Shown here in pieces: positions 1 to 16,035 of a DNA stretch of 59,712 nt (positions are counted from its first letter, which is position 1; every line of letters starts with the position of its first letter). The stretch lies in the NCBI GenBank assembly GCA_039822165.1, contig JBCBMS010000017.1:1-59712 (forward strand), in the 5' to 3' direction. The stretch comes from Chloroflexota bacterium. Its GTDB lineage: Bacteria > Chloroflexota > Anaerolineae > Aggregatilineales > Phototrophicaceae. The position numbers were made by a program, and so were the translations under genes. Under the pieces are notes generated by a model. The model saw only the letters and a program-made list of their open reading frames with translations, was not told the DNA's origin and ran no database searches.

Positions 1-231
1 CGCCAGCCCGAACAGCAGGGTTGAAAACGGCCTGCCTGAAAGGCAGGGGTTCTAACCCCTATTTACAGACAATAGATCAACTACGAGCCGAAAAATCAAA
101 GTGACGGTCGCCCCTACCCCCGTGACCGCCAACCGCGTATGATGTGGCGCTCATGCTCACAGAACCCGACCCACCTGGATAAGGATTGGCGAGAATTTGC
201 ACGGGCACGACGTAGCGCGCCCATGCTGTGA

Positions 232-1446
232 CTACCCGGTGCGCTGCATGGCTTTGCTGGCGTTACACAACCGATGCGTCGTCTGGCCGTTGGCGACCAC
301 CGTTTTGCCGCCCTGGCTGTGGGGCACCACATGATCCGCTTCGAAGGCTGCGTACACCACCTCTTCGCCGCAAATCTGGCAGATGCCTTTATCCCGGCGG
401 TAGATGACCATGCGCTGCAGGTTGGTGAAGTGTCGCTGTGCATCGCGGGTGGGCAGGTCTGGCGCATAGAGCAGCCATGCCTGTAACAGCGCGTCGTGCC
501 GGGAGTTAATGCTGCTCCACTGCTGTGGGGTGTTGTTCATGGCCGTCAGGTACTTGCGTGCCAGCGCGTCACCGTCGGCTTCATCCCGGCAGCGCTGTTC
601 GAAGTCCACCACAAAGTTATGGAACGTCATCTCGTAGCCGCTCAACACAAACGTGTCGATCACGGCGGCCACCAGCCAGTAAAGCGACACAAACTGGGCG
701 CGGGTGGAAACCTCTGGCGTGTCATCGCCCAGTGCCGCGTCGAGGAACGCCATTGTGCGTCTGATCTTTTTCGCAACGGCATCGCGCGGGTTGAACGAAT
801 CGTATGTTTCGTACATCTCCACGATGTACTTATCCGTCAGCGTTGCCCCTTCTCCCTGTAGCTCCAGCAGCACGCACTGCGCTGCCGTCTCCTGGTGGTA
901 CTGGCGAATCTGGCGGGCGCGCACGCTGGAGATGACCGGGTAGGACTGCACCAGATGTTCGACGAAGTGGTGAACTGCACCGCCCATCGCGTTGCGCTTT
1001 TCTGCCTGGGTGAGCTGGGTGCCGTTCTGCAATCGCAGGAACATCTCGCGGATCATGGTGTCGGTGGCTTCTTCGACGACGACAATATCCAGCGCGTACA
1101 TGTCGATGTGGTCTTTGACATTTTCCGGTAATTCGTTGTATGGCACCTCGCCGTACTCTGGTGTGTACTCATCGGATAACTTGAACTGGTTGGTTCGGAA
1201 CTCGTAAATGGCACGGACACGCTGCTGCCCATCAATAATTTCATAATCATATTCGGGGTCTGTAGTCAGCATGCGGAAGTATATTTTGGGGATGTCCATA
1301 TTGCGGATGATGGTGTCTATCAGCAGTTGCTTCTGCCGCCTGGTCCAGACGGAATCACGCTGATAGGACGGGGTCGGGTTCAAACGGTTATATCGGCGCT
1401 CCAGAATCATGGTAGCCCAGCTCAGAGTTTCCATCCGTCGCTTCAT
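232..1446 (-). CDS. DUF262 (ParB-like NTP-binding, DGQQR motif) protein with C-terminal HNH endonuclease motif; GmrSD-like type IV restriction candidate
   Basis: 404-aa ORF; N-terminal IIDGQQR motif typical of DUF262/ParB-like domain; C-terminal CQICG...DHVVPHSQGG...NGQTTHRLCN HNH signature. Confidence 0.7.
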   Translation of the reverse strand: MKRRMETLSWATMILERRYNRLNPTPSYQRDSVWTRRQKQLLIDTIIRNMDIPKIYFRMLTTDPEYDYEIIDGQQRVRAIYEFRTNQFKLSDEYTPEYGEVPYNELPENVKDHIDMYALDIVVVEEATDTMIREMFLRLQNGTQLTQAEKRNAMGGAVHHFVEHLVQSYPVISSVRARQIRQYHQETAAQCVLLELQGEGATLTDKYIVEMYETYDSFNPRDAVAKKIRRTMAFLDAALGDDTPEVSTRAQFVSLYWLVAAVIDTFVLSGYEMTFHNFVVDFEQRCRDEADGDALARKYLTAMNNTPQQWSSINSRHDALLQAWLLYAPDLPTRDAQRHFTNLQRMVIYRRDKGICQICGEEVVYAAFEADHVVPHSQGGKTVVANGQTTHRLCNASKAMQRTG

Positions 1447-1827
1447 GGGGAAATTGTACCCTCACTGCCCGTTTTTGCGGATATGCCTATGGTAACTCAT
1501 CCTGTAAGCCTTTGCTGTTGCAGAGCAGTTTGAAGCGTAAATTTCTGCTGATTGTTTTGAGAACATGCGTGCTGACACTGACTGCGCGTGGTGGCGACCC
1601 CACAGCAACGCCAGAACCTTACCGCCGCGAAAACCGGGAACCCGCACGCTGCACCCCCGCCGACACCTGCCATTCACAGTGCAAACTGGAAATACAGCGT
1701 CACCACCAGCGCCGCTGTGAGCACGAGGCCAGCACTGGCTGCCTTTATGCTATCTATGATAATAAAAAAGAGGCACGGACATCGCCGCACCTCTCGTGAA
1801 TGCTATGCAGTTTTCCCGCACGGGAGC

Positions 1828-3564
1828 CTATGCGCCTGCTGGTTCCTCGGTGCCGTCCATCAGGTTATTGGCCAGCCGCGCACTCGCGGAGTGAATGCCG
1901 GTGGCACCGTCCGGGCGCACATCCTGCTCTTCCTCTGGCTGCGGCGTGCCGTCACCCTCGTAGCAGCGCACCGCAAACTCGTGCGTGCCGCTCTCGAACA
2001 GCCAGTCATAGCGCCAGAACACCCACGTCTTATCGCTGATGGGTGTACGAATCTGCGCTTCTGTCCACTCGCCACCGTCCACGCTCACCTCCACCTTAGA
2101 GATACCCCGCGTAGAAGACATCGCATAGCCGCCCACCGGCACGCGGATGTTCCCATCCTCGTCCTCGAACAGATCCTGGTTGGCGATGGTGTCCACAATA
2201 GAAGTCGTCTGCATAATGGCCGTAGCGCTCCAGCCACGGCGCACCCAGTAACCGCGCTCATCCTCTGCCACCACTTCAATTGCAGTAATCCACTTCGGCT
2301 GCTTCATGCCATAGCGCTCCGGGATGTAAATGCGCAGCGGGAAGCCGTTACGCTCCGGGATCGGCTGGCCGTCCCAGTCATAGGCAAACACAATGCGCTC
2401 ATCTTCCATAATCATGTCGATGCTCACATACTCGAAGAAACCATCGCCGCCGTCAATGCGCAGCCACTTGCCATCTTCGTCAATGTCAAGCTGTGCCAGC
2501 ACGTCACGCACGGGCACACCCGTCCACTTCGTCGTGCTGATGAGATTACCGGCGATGCGGTTGGAAATGCACTGGAGCGTAATGTACTGGTCGAGGCTGT
2601 CCATCTCGCGCAGTTCCGCCATAGTGAATGCGCGGTCTTCGGCAATCAGGCCGGTAAACGGTAGCGTCCACGTCGCCAGGTCAATTTCAATCGGGCGGGA
2701 GGCGATGTCGATGCGGTAGTGCTGCTCAACCGGCGTATACTCCGGGCGCATCCCCGGCGCAGGCTGAACCTCGGCATTTGCGTTCGGCAATGCGTTGCCG
2801 AGTCCGTTCTCGGTCTGCTGTTCAATATCAGCGGCCACCGATGGTGCGGGTTCACCCGGCTCACCAATCAACAGGCCCAGGCCAGCACCCACCACAGTCA
2901 GCGTAGCGGTTGCACCACCCACACGCACCAGGAACTCACGGCGGCCCATGCGCTCGACATGCGCTTCCGGGATTTCCATCGCCGGTTCACCAGCAGTAGC
3001 AGCAGCGGCAGGCGCAGCTTTCTTTGCCTTCACCGGCAGCAGGGAAATATCACGGTAGAGCCAGCCAAAGGCCACGCCCCACGCCACAAACAGGCCCATC
3101 ACCCACAGCGCGGCAAAACGCGGGTCTGTGGAGAAGAAAGCGTTGTTCAGGCTGATAGCCGTGAAGACTACGCCAATCACAGCACCGACGACGGCACCAG
3201 CCCCGTAGAGGAAGTTTTCAAAGTTGCGAGCTGTGGCGAAGAACACCGCACCAACAACCACCCCGACAGCCAGGATGAAGCCGTAGCCCATTGCCTGCTC
3301 AATGCGTTTGGCAATCGTATCCACACTGTCGCCAAAACCGAGGCCAATAATGGCATCGACCATAATGTCGATCACGAATGTAATCAGGTCACCGGGGATA
3401 ATCGGTACCAGAAAGTCGAAAAAGTCCAGCGGCACCAGCGGCAGGCGAACCAGCGTATTGCCGAGGAAGAACAGGGCCAGCAGCGGCAACGTGAGCAGCA
3501 GCCCGACGATGCCACCGGTGATAACACCGGGGTATTGAGTCTGTTGGGTTTGTGTATTTTCCAC
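1828..3564 (-). CDS. membrane-anchored molybdopterin-dependent oxidoreductase (sulfite oxidase / MsrP-like Mo-binding domain)
   Basis: 578-aa ORF, GTG start with GGAGAG RBS; N-terminal multi-TM region, C-terminal Oxidored_molyb-like sequence (TWTLPFTG..., YITLQCISN, NGFPLRIYIPERYGMKQPKW). Confidence 0.75.
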   Translation of the reverse strand: MENTQTQQTQYPGVITGGIVGLLLTLPLLALFFLGNTLVRLPLVPLDFFDFLVPIIPGDLITFVIDIMVDAIIGLGFGDSVDTIAKRIEQAMGYGFILAVGVVVGAVFFATARNFENFLYGAGAVVGAVIGVVFTAISLNNAFFSTDPRFAALWVMGLFVAWGVAFGWLYRDISLLPVKAKKAAPAAAATAGEPAMEIPEAHVERMGRREFLVRVGGATATLTVVGAGLGLLIGEPGEPAPSVAADIEQQTENGLGNALPNANAEVQPAPGMRPEYTPVEQHYRIDIASRPIEIDLATWTLPFTGLIAEDRAFTMAELREMDSLDQYITLQCISNRIAGNLISTTKWTGVPVRDVLAQLDIDEDGKWLRIDGGDGFFEYVSIDMIMEDERIVFAYDWDGQPIPERNGFPLRIYIPERYGMKQPKWITAIEVVAEDERGYWVRRGWSATAIMQTTSIVDTIANQDLFEDEDGNIRVPVGGYAMSSTRGISKVEVSVDGGEWTEAQIRTPISDKTWVFWRYDWLFESGTHEFAVRCYEGDGTPQPEEEQDVRPDGATGIHSASARLANNLMDGTEEPAGA

Positions 3565-8450: not shown

Positions 8451-10310
8451 ATGACTGACCAGACCCTGCCACAGAACACATTTGACGCCCCTTATGACGA
8501 GGAAATGGAACGCGCCATTCTCGGTTCGGTGTTGATTAACCCGTCTGTTTTCCTGTCGATTGCGTCGTTCCTCCAGCCAGACGACTTTTTCATTCTGCGC
8601 CACCGTTACATCTGGGAGGCGTTCGGGCACATTTCGTTGCGTGGCGAACCGATTGAACGGCAGACCGTGCGCCGCCAGCTACAGGACATGGACTTCTATG
8701 AGGCCGTTGGCGGGGACGTGTACCTCTCCGAACTGACGAACAGCACCTCATCTGCCATCTATGCCGAACACTACGCCCAGCTTGTGGAGCGCGACGCCGT
8801 GCGCCGCCGCCTGCTCATCGCCAGCGACGAAATCCGGGGCATTGCCACCGACCGCGATAAGTCGCTGGAAGAAGTAATTGGCGATGCGGAAAGCAAACTG
8901 TTCGCCGTCAGTGAGCGCCGCACCCAGCGCGATGTGGTCTCCATGCGAGAGGCCACCAGCCGTTACTTCGAGCGGATTGAGCAGATGATGCAGAGCCAGC
9001 AGCGCGGGCTGGGCCTGCCGACCGGCTTCAAAAAGCTGGACGCGCTCCTGGGTGGGTTGCAGCGCAGTGACCTGCTCATCTTTGCCGGACGCCCCGGTAT
9101 GGGCAAGACGTCGTTTATGCTCTCGCTGGCACTCAATGCCGCACAGCAGTTCGGCGCACGGATTCTGGTTTTCTCGCTGGAAATGGGCGTGGAGCAGATG
9201 GTGCAGCGTATGGTGAGCATGGAAACGGGCATCAACATGCAGCGTTTGCGCACGGGCCAGTTCGAGCAGCACGAGCAGCGGTTACTGGTGGAAGCATTAG
9301 GCCGTCTGAGTACGCAGCGCATCTTCCTGGACGATTCGCCATCGCTGAACCCGATCCAGATGCGAACCAAATGCCAGCGCATCAAGCACGAGCATGGCCT
9401 GGACCTGGTGGTGCTGGACTACATGCAGTTGATGCACGCGCCGGGGTTCACCAACAACCGCGTCCAGGAGATCAGTTACATCAGCCGCCACATGAAAGAA
9501 CTGGCCCGCGAGATGAACGTGCCTCTGCTCAGTGCCGCGCAGCTATCTCGCGCTGTGGAACAGCGTGCAGACAAGCGCCCACAGTTGAGCGACCTGCGCG
9601 AGTCTGGCTGTTTAACCGGGGAGTCGCTGGTGTGGCTGCCAGATGCAGGCCGCTACGAGCGCATGGATGCGCTGTGTGGGCAGTCGGGCTTCCGGGTGAT
9701 GAGCCTGAACCCTGACACTTACAAACTGGAAGCCGCCACTGTAACGAATGCGTTCAGCACCGGGGTAAAGCCCGTGTTCAAGTTGCAAACCGCGCCAGGA
9801 CGCAGTGTGCGTGCCACAGCAAATCACAAATTCCTGACGATAGAGGGCTGGAAGCGTCTGGATGAACTGGTAATCGGGGAACGCATCGCAACCCCGGCGG
9901 ACAGAGCAGGCTCTGTCCCTGCACAGGCGCTCACAATGGCTGTAGGGACGCACAACGGCGCGTCCGCCATGAAAACCACCATACTGCCAACCGACGTGAC
10001 ATGGGCCGCCATTACCGCGATAGAACACGATGGCGAAGAAGCCGTCTACGATCTGACCGTACCCGCACATAGCAACTTCGTGTGCAACAACATCGTCGTT
10101 CACAACTCCATTGAGCAGGACGCCGACATTGTGATGTTCCTGTACCGCGACATTGTGTACAACGAGGCGACCGAATACCCGAACCAGGCCGATGTCATCG
10201 TCGCCAAGCACCGCAACGGCCCCACAGACGTGATCCCACTGTACTTCGACTCCACCATCACGCGCTTTATGGACGGCACGCGGCAGTCCGTGGATTTGAG
10301 CACGATGTAA
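8451..10310 (+). CDS. dnaB: replicative DNA helicase DnaB containing a mini-intein
   Basis: DnaB N-terminal domain, Walker A GRPGMGKTS, Walker B LVVLDYMQL; extein junction RESG|C...VVHN|SIEQDADIV. Confidence 0.95.
   Translation: MTDQTLPQNTFDAPYDEEMERAILGSVLINPSVFLSIASFLQPDDFFILRHRYIWEAFGHISLRGEPIERQTVRRQLQDMDFYEAVGGDVYLSELTNSTSSAIYAEHYAQLVERDAVRRRLLIASDEIRGIATDRDKSLEEVIGDAESKLFAVSERRTQRDVVSMREATSRYFERIEQMMQSQQRGLGLPTGFKKLDALLGGLQRSDLLIFAGRPGMGKTSFMLSLALNAAQQFGARILVFSLEMGVEQMVQRMVSMETGINMQRLRTGQFEQHEQRLLVEALGRLSTQRIFLDDSPSLNPIQMRTKCQRIKHEHGLDLVVLDYMQLMHAPGFTNNRVQEISYISRHMKELAREMNVPLLSAAQLSRAVEQRADKRPQLSDLRESGCLTGESLVWLPDAGRYERMDALCGQSGFRVMSLNPDTYKLEAATVTNAFSTGVKPVFKLQTAPGRSVRATANHKFLTIEGWKRLDELVIGERIATPADRAGSVPAQALTMAVGTHNGASAMKTTILPTDVTWAAITAIEHDGEEAVYDLTVPAHSNFVCNNIVVHNSIEQDADIVMFLYRDIVYNEATEYPNQADVIVAKHRNGPTDVIPLYFDSTITRFMDGTRQSVDLSTM
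9609..10106 (+). other. mini-intein (166 aa, no homing-endonuclease domain) inserted at the RESG/SIEQD site of DnaB
   Basis: Begins Cys (CLTGESLVW), contains TANHKF (block B T..H), ends VVHN followed by Ser; same insertion site as the Synechocystis DnaB mini-intein, recalled from memory and not checked here. Confidence 0.85.
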
Positions 10311-10355
10311 TCTGTATTGTCCCCGGCGCAGCGGACATTTATACTGTGGGTAGCT

Positions 10356-10428
10356 GCCCCCGTAGCTCAGTGGATAGAGCGCGGGACTCCTAAGCCCGGC
10401 GTCACAGGTTCGATTCCTGTCGGGGGCA
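10356..10428 (+). tRNA. tRNA-Arg (anticodon CCT)
   Basis: Cloverleaf by eye: acceptor GCCCCCG/CGGGGGC, D-arm GCTC-AGTGGATA-GAGC, anticodon loop CTCCTAA, T-arm ACAGG-TTCGATT-CCTGT; A31-G39 mismatch. Confidence 0.75.
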
Positions 10429-10444
10429 CACGCCACACTTCCAT

Positions 10445-10517
10445 GCATCCGTAGCTCAGTGGATAGAGCGCGGGACGCCTGAACCCGGCGTCACAGGTTC
10501 GATTCCTGTCGGGGGCA
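10445..10517 (+). tRNA. tRNA-Arg-like paralog with non-canonical anticodon loop CGCCTGA (G33, G37) and imperfect acceptor stem; possible pseudo-tRNA
   Basis: Same D/T arms as copy 1; acceptor GCATCCG vs CGGGGGC (1 mismatch + GU). Confidence 0.5.
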
Positions 10518-10530
10518 CACGCCACACTAT

Positions 10531-10603
10531 GCATCCGTAGCTCAGTGGATAGAGCGCGGGACGCCTGAACCCGGCGTCACAGGGTCGATTCCTGTCGGGG
10601 GCA
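10531..10603 (+). tRNA. tRNA-Arg-like paralog (loop CGCCTGA); possible pseudo-tRNA
   Basis: Near-identical to 10445..10517; T-arm ACAGGG-TCGATT-CCTGT. Confidence 0.5.
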
Positions 10604-10615
10604 CACACTTCGCCT

Positions 10616-10689
10616 GCACCCTGTAGCGCAGTGGATAGAGCACGGGACGCCTGAACCCGGCGTCACAGGGTCGATTCCTGTCGAGGGCA
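10616..10689 (+). tRNA. tRNA-Arg-like paralog (loop CGCCTGA), most degenerate copy; possible pseudo-tRNA
   Basis: D-stem GCGC/GAGC and acceptor with mismatches; 3' end CGAGGGCA. Confidence 0.4.
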
Positions 10690-10705
10690 AACGCCACACT
10701 TCCAT

Positions 10706-10778
10706 GCATCCGTAGCTCAGTGGATAGAGCACGGGACGCCTGAACCCGGCGTCACAGGGTCGATTCCTGTTGGGGGCA
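10706..10778 (+). tRNA. tRNA-Arg-like paralog (loop CGCCTGA); possible pseudo-tRNA
   Basis: Same unit as copies 2-3; followed by terminator. Confidence 0.5.
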
Positions 10779-10786
10779 TACACTGA

Positions 10787-10809
10787 ACCGGGTATGCTGC
10801 CCGGTTTTA
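10787..10809 (+). terminator. Rho-independent terminator closing the tRNA array
   Basis: ACCGGG-tatgctg-CCCGGT followed by TTTT. Confidence 0.75.
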
Positions 10810-10856
10810 TTGTATACTCTGGTGACCCGTTATGAACCACAGTAAGGTGATACCAC

Positions 10857-11219
10857 ATGGCCGAAATTGACTGGACGCAGTGGATGAATCAACTTGATCG
10901 ACTGCCGGAAGATGCCCACCTTTCGCGTGCGCAGATGTCTGAGGACGATGTGAAGCTAAAGCAAATGTGGACGTGTGCATTTCCAGACGGGTTGAGTCAT
11001 GCTGAAGTGCTGCAACTCATTCACCTGCTGTACAACGAATATGGGTACGGTTTCAGACCACTCGCGCATGATGTTGGTATCGTGCTCAGGGTCAACTACG
11101 TCTATGTGTTGAATGAAGTCTATGGTGTGCACGAAATTGAACCTGATCCAGAAGTACAGAATAGACTCAGGGTAAAGATGGTAGACTGTGGCTATGTCGA
11201 ATGGATGTCTGAGGAATAG
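10857..11219 (+). CDS. hypothetical protein (AT-rich islet gene 1)
   Basis: 120-aa ORF, lower GC than surroundings, no recognisable motif. Confidence 0.55.
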   Translation: MAEIDWTQWMNQLDRLPEDAHLSRAQMSEDDVKLKQMWTCAFPDGLSHAEVLQLIHLLYNEYGYGFRPLAHDVGIVLRVNYVYVLNEVYGVHEIEPDPEVQNRLRVKMVDCGYVEWMSEE

Positions 11220-11222
11220 ATC

Positions 11223-11423
11223 ATGGCTTTTGAACGAATCACAATCGACCCGGCGAAAATGGGCGGTGTGTCCTGTATACGCGGATTGCGTATACCCGTA
11301 GCAACCGTAGTAGATATGGTTGCAGCGGGGATGTCCACAGATGAGATTCTGGCAAATTTTCCTGACCTCGAACTTGAAGACATTACTGAAGCCCTGCGCT
11401 TTGCATCAGTAGTTCTCCGATAA
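11223..11423 (+). CDS. DUF433 family small protein (antitoxin-like HTH)
   Basis: 66 aa; pattern IRGLRIPV..V.......G.S.DEIL..FPDLELEDI..AL.FA matches DUF433 consensus from memory. Confidence 0.6.
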   Translation: MAFERITIDPAKMGGVSCIRGLRIPVATVVDMVAAGMSTDEILANFPDLELEDITEALRFASVVLR

Positions 11424-11444
11424 TGGTAGTTACCGCAGATCACG

Positions 11445-12101
11445 ATGCACAACATTACTGACAAGGATGACCTTGTAGCTACTATTGAGAAACTGTACGC
11501 GGTATTCAACAAATACCCCTTACGTTCATGGATATCGGGTAATACCAAACAGCGGGCAAGCAAAATACATGCCTTGCGAGCCGTAACGCTTGATGATTTG
11601 TTCGAAAATGATATAGATCACTACTATCTTGATTCGGAGACATTTCGCGGACTGTTTCCACGAATATGTGAAATGATCGCGTTTGAAGATCTACATGACT
11701 TCGAGTTGGGTTACAACTTGAGACTGTCTGTACTTTCTGAGAAGCATTCATGGGAGGATTGGCCGTCAGAGGAACAGGATGCGATCAATACCTATTTGAT
11801 GGCATTGTGGAAATACTTGCCTTCTGTAAAAACGCCAGACTTTGAGCACTTCGTTGAAGTGGCATCAGACATAAATTGCGTGGTCAGCGACCTAACGCCT
11901 TATATAAGGGTGCTTCAGGACAGATGTAGCAATGTTCTGGGTGTCAGGTATCTGGCTGCATGTGTAATTGAAGGTTCTTTTGGCAAGCGCCTATCACAAC
12001 AATCTTTTGTGCTGCCATTGCTTGAAAAAACTTACTATGAACACATTGATACCCCGATAGGTGAAGAAATGGCACGAGCAGTCAATGCCATCGAAAAGTA
12101 G
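11445..12101 (+). CDS. hypothetical protein (AT-rich islet gene 3)
   Basis: 218-aa ORF, AT-rich codon usage, no recognisable motif. Confidence 0.55.
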   Translation: MHNITDKDDLVATIEKLYAVFNKYPLRSWISGNTKQRASKIHALRAVTLDDLFENDIDHYYLDSETFRGLFPRICEMIAFEDLHDFELGYNLRLSVLSEKHSWEDWPSEEQDAINTYLMALWKYLPSVKTPDFEHFVEVASDINCVVSDLTPYIRVLQDRCSNVLGVRYLAACVIEGSFGKRLSQQSFVLPLLEKTYYEHIDTPIGEEMARAVNAIEK

Positions 12102-14190: not shown

Positions 14191-16035
14191 ATGAACAAGA
14201 ACATCCTCCGTATACTGATAATTGTTTCGCTGCTTGCAGTAACCGCGTTCGCGGGTGTATCCGCCCAGGATGACACGATCAAGATCGGCGCACTGACCAA
14301 AAACCTGAGCAACGAGTTCTTCGTCGCAATGGCCAACGGCTACGAGTGGGCCGGTGAGCGTTATGACATCGAGATTGTGGTGGGCAGCACCCCGACTGAA
14401 AACGCCGCCGAAGAACAGCTTGCTATACTCGAAGGCTGGCTGACCGAAGGGGACTTCGATGGTTTTATTGTCACGCCGTTCCGCGCCACCAGCCTGAACA
14501 GTGGTCTTGCCGCCGCGACCGAAGCTGGCATCCCGATCATCAACATGGACGAGATCATCCCGGCAGACGCTGCGGCTGACAGCGGTATCGAAATCGCTGC
14601 CCGCATCTCATCCAACAACGTGCGCGGCGGCGAGTTCGCAGCGAACTATGTTGTCGCCAACGTGGATGAGGGCGCACAGGTGGCCGTGATTGAAGGCGCA
14701 CCGGGCACGACCTCCAGCATTGACCGCGTGACCGGCTTTGCGGATACCGCAACCGCCGGTGGCCTCGAAGTCGTCGCCAGCCAGCCCGCGAACTGGGATC
14801 GTGCTGAGGCGTTCAACGTCGCCACCAACATCCTCCAGTCCAACCCGGACGTGCAGGCAATTTTCGCGGCCAATGACGGGATGGGCCTGGGTGCTGTAGA
14901 AGCGATTGAAGCCGCTGGTATGGCCGATAGTGTGATCGTTGTCAGTGTGGACGCGATTCCAGAAGCACTGGCTGCTGTGGAAGAAGGCCGCCTGGCCGGT
15001 ACCGTGGCGCAGTACCCGGATGAGATGGCTGTTCTGGGTGTGGAAGCCATGCTCAAGGCCATTAATGGCCGCCCGATTGCCCCGCAGATTGAGTCCCCGG
15101 TTGTACTGATTACCGGTGAGAACCTGGACGTGGCAGGCAGCCAGCTTGGTGATGCTGCCATTGGCGAATACAAGATCGGTGGCCTGACGAAGAACCTGAG
15201 CAACGAGTTCTTCCTCGCTATGATCGAAGGGTATGAGATGGCCGCCGCTGACCTCGGCGTAGAAGTGGTGACCGGCAGCACCCCGACCGAAAACGCCGCC
15301 GAAGAACAACTTGCCGTCCTCGAAGGCTGGATCAACGAGGGCGATTTTGACGGCTACGCGGTAACACCGTTCCGTGCCACCAGCCTGAACAGCGGCCTCG
15401 CAACCGCAACTGAAAACGGTACGCCGATCATTAACCTGGACGAACTGATCCCGGCAGATGCTGCGGCTGATAGCGGCCTGAACATCGCGCAGCGCATCGC
15501 GTCCAATAACGTGCGCGGCGGCGAGTTCGCAGCCAACTACGTGCTTTCCGCCGTGGATGCTGGCGCACAGGTCGCCGTGATTGAGGGCGCACCGGGCACC
15601 ACCTCCAGTATTGACCGCGTCACCGGCTTTGCCGATACCGCCACTGCTGGTGGCCTGGACGTGGTTGCCAGCCAGCCCGCCAACTGGGATCGTGCTGAGG
15701 CGTTCAATGTGGCTACCAACATCCTCCAGTCCAACCCGGACGTACAGGCAATCTTCGCCGCCAATGACGGTATGGGCCTGGGTGCTGTAGAAGCGATTGA
15801 AGCGGCTGGTATGGCCGATAGTGTGATTGTCGTCAGTGTTGACGCGATCCCGGAAGCACTTGCCGCTGTGGAAGAAGGCCGCCTGGCCGGTACGGTTGCG
15901 CAGTTCCCGGATGAAATGGCTTACCTGGCCGTTGAGGGTATGATTAAAGTCATCGAAGGCCGCCCGGTTGCGCCGTTCATGGAATCACCCGTGATGCTCA
16001 TCACGTCCGATAACCTCGGTATGATGATGGAATAA
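14191..16035 (+). CDS. periplasmic sugar-binding protein with two tandem, near-identical type-I PBP domains
   Basis: Signal peptide; two ~299-aa repeats each starting IGALTKNLSNEFF / IGGLTKNLSNEFF and ending RP(I/V)AP..ESPV(V/M)LIT. Confidence 0.85.
   Translation: MNKNILRILIIVSLLAVTAFAGVSAQDDTIKIGALTKNLSNEFFVAMANGYEWAGERYDIEIVVGSTPTENAAEEQLAILEGWLTEGDFDGFIVTPFRATSLNSGLAAATEAGIPIINMDEIIPADAAADSGIEIAARISSNNVRGGEFAANYVVANVDEGAQVAVIEGAPGTTSSIDRVTGFADTATAGGLEVVASQPANWDRAEAFNVATNILQSNPDVQAIFAANDGMGLGAVEAIEAAGMADSVIVVSVDAIPEALAAVEEGRLAGTVAQYPDEMAVLGVEAMLKAINGRPIAPQIESPVVLITGENLDVAGSQLGDAAIGEYKIGGLTKNLSNEFFLAMIEGYEMAAADLGVEVVTGSTPTENAAEEQLAVLEGWINEGDFDGYAVTPFRATSLNSGLATATENGTPIINLDELIPADAAADSGLNIAQRIASNNVRGGEFAANYVLSAVDAGAQVAVIEGAPGTTSSIDRVTGFADTATAGGLDVVASQPANWDRAEAFNVATNILQSNPDVQAIFAANDGMGLGAVEAIEAAGMADSVIVVSVDAIPEALAAVEEGRLAGTVAQFPDEMAYLAVEGMIKVIEGRPVAPFMESPVMLITSDNLGMMME
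14263..16020 (+). repeat. ~897-bp tandem direct duplication (2 copies, estimated >85% nt identity) inside the binding-protein gene
   Basis: Repeat units begin near 14266 and 15163; protein repeats nearly identical. Confidence 0.8.

Follow-up and report, generated by a model that had tools for sequence, protein, structure and literature searches.

A tandem array of tRNA-Arg(CCU)-like units downstream from dnaB in a Chloroflexota bacterium, probably one tRNA gene and four decaying copies

Results

Five tRNA-Arg-like units are located downstream from dnaB

The DNA analyzed here, referred to as the window, comprises the 59,712 nucleotides of contig JBCBMS010000017.1 of assembly GCA_039822165.1. 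This piece of the chromosome of an uncultured Chloroflexota bacterium is unremarkable, and searches with Pfam identified housekeeping genes in it, among them a dnaB that contains an intein and genes for ATP-binding cassette (ABC) transporters and complex I subunits. The top matches of DnaB were found in metagenome-assembled genomes (MAGs) of the Anaerolineae type. Five tRNA-like units, designated units 1 to 5, are arranged head to tail on the forward strand between positions 10356 and 10778, with a period of 86–89 bp (Table 1). The array starts 46 bp past the stop codon of dnaB (position 10310). The original prediction, made from the sequence alone, had proposed that this region contains five tRNA-Arg-like genes in tandem, and the array was confirmed by Tandem Repeats Finder, a repeat search, and Rfam. 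Tandem Repeats Finder identified an 86-bp unit present in 4.8 copies between positions 10360 and 10778 (90% matches). The repeat search recovered five copies of 81 nucleotides, spaced by 89, 86, 86, and 89 bp, and a 26-nucleotide pattern of the T-arm and acceptor stem was found five times versus 0 expected by chance.

A putative promoter precedes the array. Its –10 hexamer ends 10 nucleotides upstream from unit 1, which would leave a 5′ leader of only about 3–5 nucleotides. The hairpin of an intrinsic terminator begins 6 nucleotides after unit 5. This terminator, and the low-GC stretch that follows it, had both been anticipated and were recovered by a terminator scan and by analysis of the base composition, respectively. 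The location of the five units between one promoter and one terminator suggests that they form a single transcription unit. The four spacers separating the units are mutually related, yet each is different, and none resembles the 5′ leader of unit 1.

Unit 1 is an intact tRNA-Arg(CCU) gene

To score the units, we used the Rfam tRNA model RF00005, which has a gathering threshold of 29 bits, and ARAGORN at its default and relaxed (-ps) settings. Units 1, 2, 3, and 5 passed the Rfam threshold, which was failed by unit 4, and the scores dropped along the array, with a minimum at unit 4 (Table 1). High scores combined with standard loops were not obtained for all five units, and the folding performed by eye in the original prediction proved to be right.

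Unit 1 contains a perfect 7-bp acceptor stem, an anticodon loop of sequence CUCCUAA, GTTCGATTCC in its T-arm, and the discriminator base A73. It also contains the U36-A37-A38 motif for N6-threonylcarbamoyladenosine (t6A). As had been claimed, the canonical loop (CU-CCU-AA) and the perfect acceptor stem are combined in this unit only. The anticodon arm of unit 1, including the A31·G39 opposition, is identical to that of an unrelated single-copy tRNA-Arg(CCU) detected in a metagenome scan (L088), indicating that A31·G39 is not a defect. The terminal CCA is encoded in none of the five units. Unit 1 is probably the working tRNA-Arg(CCU) gene of the organism.

Units 2 to 5 are altered at positions that are nearly invariant in tRNAs

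Unit 2 differs from unit 1 at exactly five positions (C3A, C4U, U33G, A37G, and G39A) and retains T54. The anticodon loop CGCCUGA, which contains G33 and G37, is present in units 2 to 5, in agreement with the original prediction, U33 being found in unit 1 only. U33 is highly conserved and stabilizes the anticodon turn (PMC11415595). The G39A substitution, which had been overlooked, replaces the A31·G39 opposition of unit 1 by A31·A39 in the variants. The t6A motif is also lost in units 2 to 5 (U36-G37-A38). The sequence 36-UAA-38 is reported to be strictly required for t6A37 in ANN-decoding tRNAs (PMC13276492).

The acceptor stem of units 2, 3, and 5 (GCAUCCG/CGGGGGC) contains an A3·G70 mismatch and a U4·G69 wobble pair, and a fully paired 7-bp acceptor stem is present in unit 1 alone. 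An A-G mismatch had been attributed to all four variants; the above stem was found in units 2, 3, and 5, and unit 4 has a different 5′ strand. The latter strand, GCACCCUG, contains U4C and a 1-nucleotide insertion before position 8. Additional substitutions in unit 4 are G26A, U54G, U12G, which breaks a D-stem pair (G12·A23), and G68A, which breaks an acceptor pair (C5·A68). Changes in the D-stem and acceptor stem of this copy had been correctly noticed, and the insertion comes in addition. Contrary to the original prediction, the T-arms are not common to all units. Units 1 and 2 share the T-loop GGTTCGATTCC, containing T54, whereas units 3 to 5 contain GGGTCGATTCC, in which G54 replaces the universal T54, a change that had been overlooked. 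Relative to unit 2, unit 5 contains three substitutions, U54G, G26A, and C66U.

Other features are common to the five units. Alignment of the units revealed that the tertiary-core bases U8, A14, G18G19, A21, C56, and A58 are invariant, and the D-loop AGUGGAUA (G18G19 and A20) and the CCU anticodon are also the same. The identity elements recognized by arginyl-tRNA synthetase (ArgRS) are A20, C35, and U36 or G36. The set A20, C35, and U36 is kept in all units, and the variants could still be recognized by ArgRS and by processing enzymes.

The alignment also revealed nested sharing of the substitutions in the order of the array, the five changes of unit 2 being found in units 2 to 5, G54 in units 3 to 5, and A26 in units 4 and 5. 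Two other readings were considered and rejected. The Y RNA-like family YrlA (RF02553) gave scores of 32.8 and 30.9 bits versus a threshold of 69, scores that stem from the tRNA-like module extending across two neighboring units. Inspection of the anticodon stem for a shift in register restoring a U33-type loop led to no paired stem.

The array varies between closely related strains

A second MAG, GCA_039820705.1, harbors one contig with units 1, 2, and 3 and the start of unit 4, identical to the window, and another contig (L006) with spacer 4, unit 5, and the terminator. Unit 5 of L006 differs from that of the window at position 10706 alone (G1T). As would be expected of a repeat, contigs of this species assembled from short reads end within the array. 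A third assembly, GCA_038520535.1 (L002), is 99.7% identical to the window over 3.1 kb and contains only unit 1 and one unit of the unit 2 type (T54, G26, and C66), directly followed by the terminator. This second unit is identical to unit 2 of the window. The two-unit contig is possibly a collapsed assembly. The last unit is polymorphic between strains, with G1T in L006 and A26G in L007. Both the number of units (2 versus 5) and their sequence appear to be fluid at a very short evolutionary distance.

The substitutions are clustered and may have been templated

In Tandem Repeats Finder the array starts at position 10360, which corresponds to tRNA position 5, and the homology between unit 1 and the variants begins there. 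Because the repeat starts at position 5 and the variants and unit 1 have unrelated 5′ leaders, the apparent acceptor substitutions may not be true substitutions and may instead correspond to the sequence of a duplication junction (GCAU, which happens to begin with GC).

The U33G substitution perfects an inverted repeat, GACGCC-N7-GGCGTC (tRNA positions 30–35 and 43–48; positions 10474–10492 in unit 2, with the same repeat in units 3 to 5), and is within the 3.7% most stabilizing single changes possible in unit 1. A37G and G39A together turn CTAAGCC into CTGAACC, a sequence also found at positions 10783–10789, just 5′ of the terminator stem and overlapping its first bases. The variant loop CTGAACCCGG (positions 10479–10488, 10565–10574, 10651–10660, and 10740–10749) is nearly identical to CTGAACCGGG at positions 10783–10792. 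This match may reflect templated mutation or coincidence. The three changes in the 5′ strand of unit 4 all raise complementarity to GCGTCACAGGGT. Viewed post hoc, these clustered changes suggest template-switch mutagenesis, the templates being nearby inverted or direct near-repeats.

The minimum free energy structure predicted by RNAfold for units 2, 3, and 5 is not the cloverleaf but a set of three hairpins built on the GACGCC/GGCGUC helix, which is more favorable by 3.8–6.8 kcal/mol. The later substitutions are not unusually stabilizing for any fold (fractions of 0.20, 0.18, and 0.47). Since they are no more stabilizing than usual, selection for the three-hairpin fold is not claimed.

The array is found at a synteny break

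Five relatives (L090, L091, L092, L095, and L097) encode a DnaB that is 75–78% identical to that of the window. In these relatives, BFN and dnaB are followed by a DnaD-like gene (DnaB_2) and a DnaC-like gene (IstB/AAA), and then by a GNAT gene wherever the fetched locus extends far enough. An insertion of two transposase-type genes (DDE_Tnp_1 and IS605 OrfB-type) separates dnaB from the DnaD-like gene in L092. None of the five relatives has a tRNA at the dnaB locus, and the DnaD-like and DnaC-like loader genes do not occur anywhere in the window. Since the genes following dnaB in the relatives are different and absent from the window, the array is located exactly at a synteny break, which falls between positions 10310 and 10356. 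A search of genome contigs for DnaB returned 80 loci, all with at most 53% identity, and no tRNA-Arg was found near dnaB in the 49 Chloroflexota-type loci that were scanned. The array appears to be lineage-specific.

Upstream from BFN and dnaB, relative L091 carries a gene of the FemAB family (positions 1078–2151, reverse strand) and a PAD_porph gene, of the arginine/agmatine deiminase type (positions 1–499, reverse strand). FemAB-family enzymes are aminoacyl-tRNA-dependent transferases. No counterpart of these two genes was seen among the scanned open reading frames (ORFs) of the window, and we do not connect them with the array.

Searches for homologous arrays were negative. The anticodon-arm pattern GCRCGGGACKCCTRARCCCGGCG detected one unrelated single canonical tRNA-Arg(CCU), one chance match, and no array in the metagenome scan, and had no match in viral contigs. 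Peptides from antisense ORFs of the array, compared with 5.8 billion proteins and 1.84 billion cluster representatives, retrieved nothing or generic antisense-tRNA ORFs. BLAST of units 2 and 3 in distant mode against phage and plasmid collections retrieved ordinary single tRNA-Arg matches only. Look-ups of the DUF433 and BFN neighbors led only to contigs of the same species.

Genes neighboring the array

The terminator is followed by a low-GC islet of about 1.4 kb (GC content of 42–47% at 10.95–12.3 kb versus about 58%) containing three small genes, which are given in Table 1 as context. The islet proteins had no match in NCBIfam, PADLOC, or the PDB, and DUF433 was the only Pfam match. AlphaFold2 models obtained from single sequences were all-helical and of low confidence. 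AGA and AGG account for 8 of the 22 arginine codons of the islet versus 4.8% in core genes. These genes may form a small cassette that has been acquired, for instance an antitoxin or immunity module.

The Pfam scan for integrases and recombinases covered 46 ORFs of the window, up to about 48.4 kb, and detected no such domain. Outside the array, the window contains no additional copy of the tRNA 3′ end. Neither an aminoacyl-tRNA-dependent transferase nor a tRNA nuclease was found among the scanned ORFs.

Three other observations were made in the window. A mini-intein (Pfam Intein_splicing, residues 396–552) devoid of a homing-endonuclease domain splits the replicative helicase DnaB (positions 8451–10310, forward strand), whose homologues include proteins with larger LAGLIDADG (PF14528) inteins and intein-free proteins (454 amino acids). 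An ORF at positions 232–1446 (reverse strand) combines GmrSD_N and HNH nuclease domains, matches NsnA in PADLOC (E = 1.3e-29), and likely encodes a restriction or defense nuclease. A 614-amino-acid protein (positions 14191–16035, forward strand) contains two tandem periplasmic sugar-binding domains (Peripla_BP_4, matched twice); substrate-binding components of ABC sugar transporters are usually shorter.

Table 1. Features of the array and of the adjoining islet.
Feature	Position	Strand	Evidence and remarks
Sigma-70-like promoter, TTGTCC-17 nt-TATACT	10317–10345	+	Consensus scan, 9/12 matches; putative function
Unit 1, canonical tRNA-Arg(CCU)	10356–10428	+	Rfam 64.4 bits; ARAGORN default, Arg(cct)
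Spacer 1, CACGCCACACTTCCAT	10429–10444	+	16 nt; no relation to the 5′ leader of unit 1 (alignment)
Unit 2, founder-type variant	10445–10517	+	Rfam 47.0 bits; ARAGORN default, Arg(cct)
Spacer 2, CACGCCACACTAT	10518–10530	+	13 nt; 3 nt shorter than spacer 1
Unit 3, unit 2 with U54G	10531–10603	+	Rfam 41.9 bits; ARAGORN at relaxed threshold only
Spacer 3, CACACTTCGCCT	10604–10615	+	12 nt; lacks the CACGC block of spacers 1 and 2
Unit 4, most decayed	10616–10689	+	Rfam 21.2 bits (match 10618–10689), below 29; no ARAGORN call on the + strand even at -ps60
Spacer 4, AACGCCACACTTCCAT	10690–10705	+	16 nt; AACGC in place of CACGC; junction also in independent MAG contig L006
Unit 5, variant with A26, G54, and C66U (G7·U66)	10706–10778	+	Rfam 38.7 bits; ARAGORN at relaxed threshold only
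Intrinsic terminator, GAACCGGG-loop-CCCGGTT and T-run	10785–10812	+	Terminator scan, 10-pair stem
Low-GC islet, three small genes	10857–12101	+	Context; membership in the array not claimed
120-aa ORFan	10857–11219	+	Self-match only among 5.8 billion proteins
66-aa DUF433 protein	11223–11423	+	Pfam
218-aa protein without family	11445–12101	+	No match in Pfam

Discussion

The array probably consists of one functional tRNA gene followed by four co-transcribed pseudo-tRNAs that arose by tandem duplication and unequal crossing-over and are now decaying. This conclusion is based on the drop in the scores along the array, on the alteration of U33, of the t6A motif, of T54, and of stem pairs, on the nested order of the substitutions, on the disruption of unit 4, on the change in copy number between strains, and on the absence of a tRNA at this locus in the relatives. 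The affected sites (U33, A37, T54, and the 3–70 pair) hardly ever vary in working elongator tRNAs, and nested sharing is the pattern that would be expected of stepwise tandem expansion. Of the three possibilities originally offered for the variants (pseudo-tRNAs, tRNA-derived regulatory RNAs, and remnants of repeated integration), the pseudo-tRNAs are the best supported. The proposal that the variants were amplified after they had diverged is supported by the shared founder changes and by the nested G54 and A26.

We infer both the lack of function of units 2 to 5 and the following mutational mechanism from the sequence. A first duplication would have generated a founder of the unit 2 type, homologous to unit 1 from tRNA position 5 on. 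Because the homology starts only at this position, the 5′ acceptor strand of the founder would be mismatched with its 3′ strand. The anticodon loop of the founder would have acquired three clustered changes, U33G, A37G, and G39A. In a single lineage, the founder would then have been expanded to four copies through unequal crossing-over between the 86–89-bp repeats or through slippage during their replication, with further changes along the way (G54 in units 3 to 5, A26 in units 4 and 5, and many in unit 4). Since a single promoter and a single terminator flank the whole array, the copies are probably co-transcribed with unit 1, and they would then be cut out or degraded and probably take no part in decoding. 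Additional gene dosage is not needed because AGG is rare (14 of 10,229 codons, or 2.7% of the arginine codons, in 22 core genes).

Several observations weigh against the decay of units 2 to 5. The anticodon (C34, C35, and U36), A20, G18G19, U8, A14, C56, and A58 are untouched in all units. Units 2, 3, and 5 contain only 0–3 further changes each, the short spacers being more variable, and this may reflect some constraint or gene conversion. All five differences between units 1 and 2 are confined to positions 3–4 and 33–39, the other 68 positions being identical (p of about 0.02 in a simulation, post hoc), and this clustering is compatible both with selection acting on the anticodon loop and with a mutational cluster. 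Natural decoding tRNAs with G33 or A33 are known (PMC11415595). Finally, no homologous array from more distant species was recovered in the metagenome, viral, and antisense-ORF searches.

These observations bear on the possibility that units 2 to 5, or at least units 2, 3, and 5, give rise to non-canonical tRNA-like RNAs that have a function, undergo processing, and perhaps receive arginine. Such RNAs would decode poorly at the ribosome because of G33 and the missing t6A37, and they could act as off-ribosome arginine donors, as decoys or sponges for an anticodon nuclease or modification enzyme, or as deliberately weak readers of AGG. The clustering of the three founder changes in the anticodon loop, with the anticodon spared, the intact tertiary core, the promoter and terminator in common with a working tRNA, and the identity of unit 2 in two strains are all consistent with such a function. 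There are also precedents, in the form of G33 and A33 tRNAs participating in translation (PMC11415595) and of a pseudo-tRNA regulator located beside a genomic island in B. cereus (PMC3399842). However, the identity of unit 2 between strains carries no weight at 0.3% divergence, the later changes affect T54 and the stems and are not unusually stabilizing, unit 4 is badly broken, G1 is polymorphic in the last unit, and the copy number ranges from 2 to 5 among near-identical strains. Likewise, the scanned ORFs of the window encode no aminoacyl-tRNA-dependent transferase or tRNA nuclease, and no related array was found in the metagenome, viral, phage, plasmid, and antisense-ORF searches. We therefore regard a function of the variants as unlikely. 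A more specific proposal, which we consider doubtful enough to rank as quite improbable, is that the unit 2 type is a deliberately disabled arginine tRNA that is cut out, CCA-tailed, and charged, and acts either as a decoy for a nuclease or toxin that targets tRNA-Arg or as a donor of arginine outside the ribosome, its copy number being tuned by tandem expansion. Charging would be preserved because A20, C35, and U36 are kept, and the RNA would stay off the ribosome because of G33 and the lost t6A37, or because of refolding by the GACGCC/GGCGUC hairpin that U33G enables.

An increased supply of tRNA-Arg(CCU) is a very unlikely role for the extra units, since each of them contains G33 and a mismatched acceptor stem and lacks the t6A motif, dosage copies are normally identical to their parent, and AGG represents merely 0.14% of core-gene codons. 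In favor of this role, tandem repeats of tRNA genes are common in bacteria and the adjoining islet is rich in AGG and AGA; duplication of tRNA genes under experimental selection is documented (PMC7661048). Repeated site-specific integration and excision at a tRNA-Arg gene, leaving duplicated attachment (att) sites as scars, would account for the position of the array at a synteny break next to a low-GC ORFan islet. tRNA and transfer-messenger RNA (tmRNA) genes are classic integration sites, and serial integrations in Dehalococcoides, another member of the Chloroflexota, leave many direct repeats of ssrA (PMC3146451). Such scars are, however, short 3′ fragments (about 20 bp; PMC3146451) separated by several kb, whereas the units described here are of full length, including the D-arm and the anticodon arm, and are 12–16 bp apart. 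Given that the Pfam-scanned ORFs include no integrase or recombinase and that the window lacks a distal att-like repeat of the tRNA 3′ end, this part of the original prediction was not upheld; the unit anatomy appears to have largely refuted it already, and we consider it highly improbable. The explanation that we find the least credible, to the point of being negligible, is that metagenome assembly joined variants of one or two units from different strains into a chain. Contigs of this species do stop within the array, and one MAG has two units only, but each junction has its own spacer (16, 13, 12, and 16 nucleotides), which a two-unit locus could not supply. An independent MAG repeats both the segment from unit 1 to the start of unit 4 and the segment from spacer 4 to the terminator, with position 10706 as the only difference. 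Because of this match and of the junction-specific spacers, the array is considered to be real and not an artefact of assembly.

If one tRNA gene and four pseudo-tRNAs are indeed present, the locus provides a natural snapshot of a bacterial tRNA gene duplicating in tandem, with copies that are dying. The cluster of changes in the anticodon loop of the founder and the change in copy number at the strain level are mildly notable. The array also calls for caution in annotation, since ARAGORN reports unit 2 as a normal tRNA-Arg and Rfam accepts four of the five units, and short-read assemblies break, or possibly collapse, at this locus. Should units with G33, G37, and A39 prove to be expressed and conserved, they would provide a bacterial example of an arginine tRNA that is purposely non-decoding.

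The array is an instance of an already known process, the tandem duplication of a tRNA gene accompanied by decay, and is in this respect fairly ordinary. E. coli harbors four tandem tRNA-Arg(ACG) genes. As in such bacterial tandem tRNA genes, the units described here are head-to-tail copies with short spacers and common transcription signals, in a type of locus whose copy number changes by duplication and unequal recombination. Copies in these tandems are intact and serve dosage, whereas only the first copy is intact here, the others being altered at U33, A37, T54, and the acceptor stem. The duplications described in PMC7661048 are large-scale, in contrast to the unit of 86–89 bp found here.

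A tRNA-Ser with G33 mistranslates, G33 seeming to curtail its decoding efficiency, and bacterial tRNA-ProX carries A33 (PMC11415595). The near-universal U33 is replaced in these tRNAs as it is in units 2 to 5. As far as is known, the stems and T-loops of such tRNAs are intact, several species share them, and their amino-acid identity has changed, whereas the units described here retain the elements of arginine identity, show a mismatched acceptor stem, and have lost T54 in units 3 to 5.

The ssrA islands of Dehalococcoides, in the same phylum, likewise combine tRNA-derived repeats at a synteny break with adjacent low-GC strain-specific DNA (PMC3146451), but their scars are 3′ fragments of about 20 bp with integrase-bearing islands between them, as opposed to cloverleaf-sized units separated by 12–16 bp. 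Finally, tRNA-Other of B. cereus, a pseudo-tRNA that has become part of a regulatory RNA, is also a tRNA-like gene located beside an island and not acting in translation (PMC3399842). Only one such gene is present there, phenotypes have been obtained for it by experiment, and its longer transcripts have been mapped, whereas the copies described here are repeated and visibly decaying.

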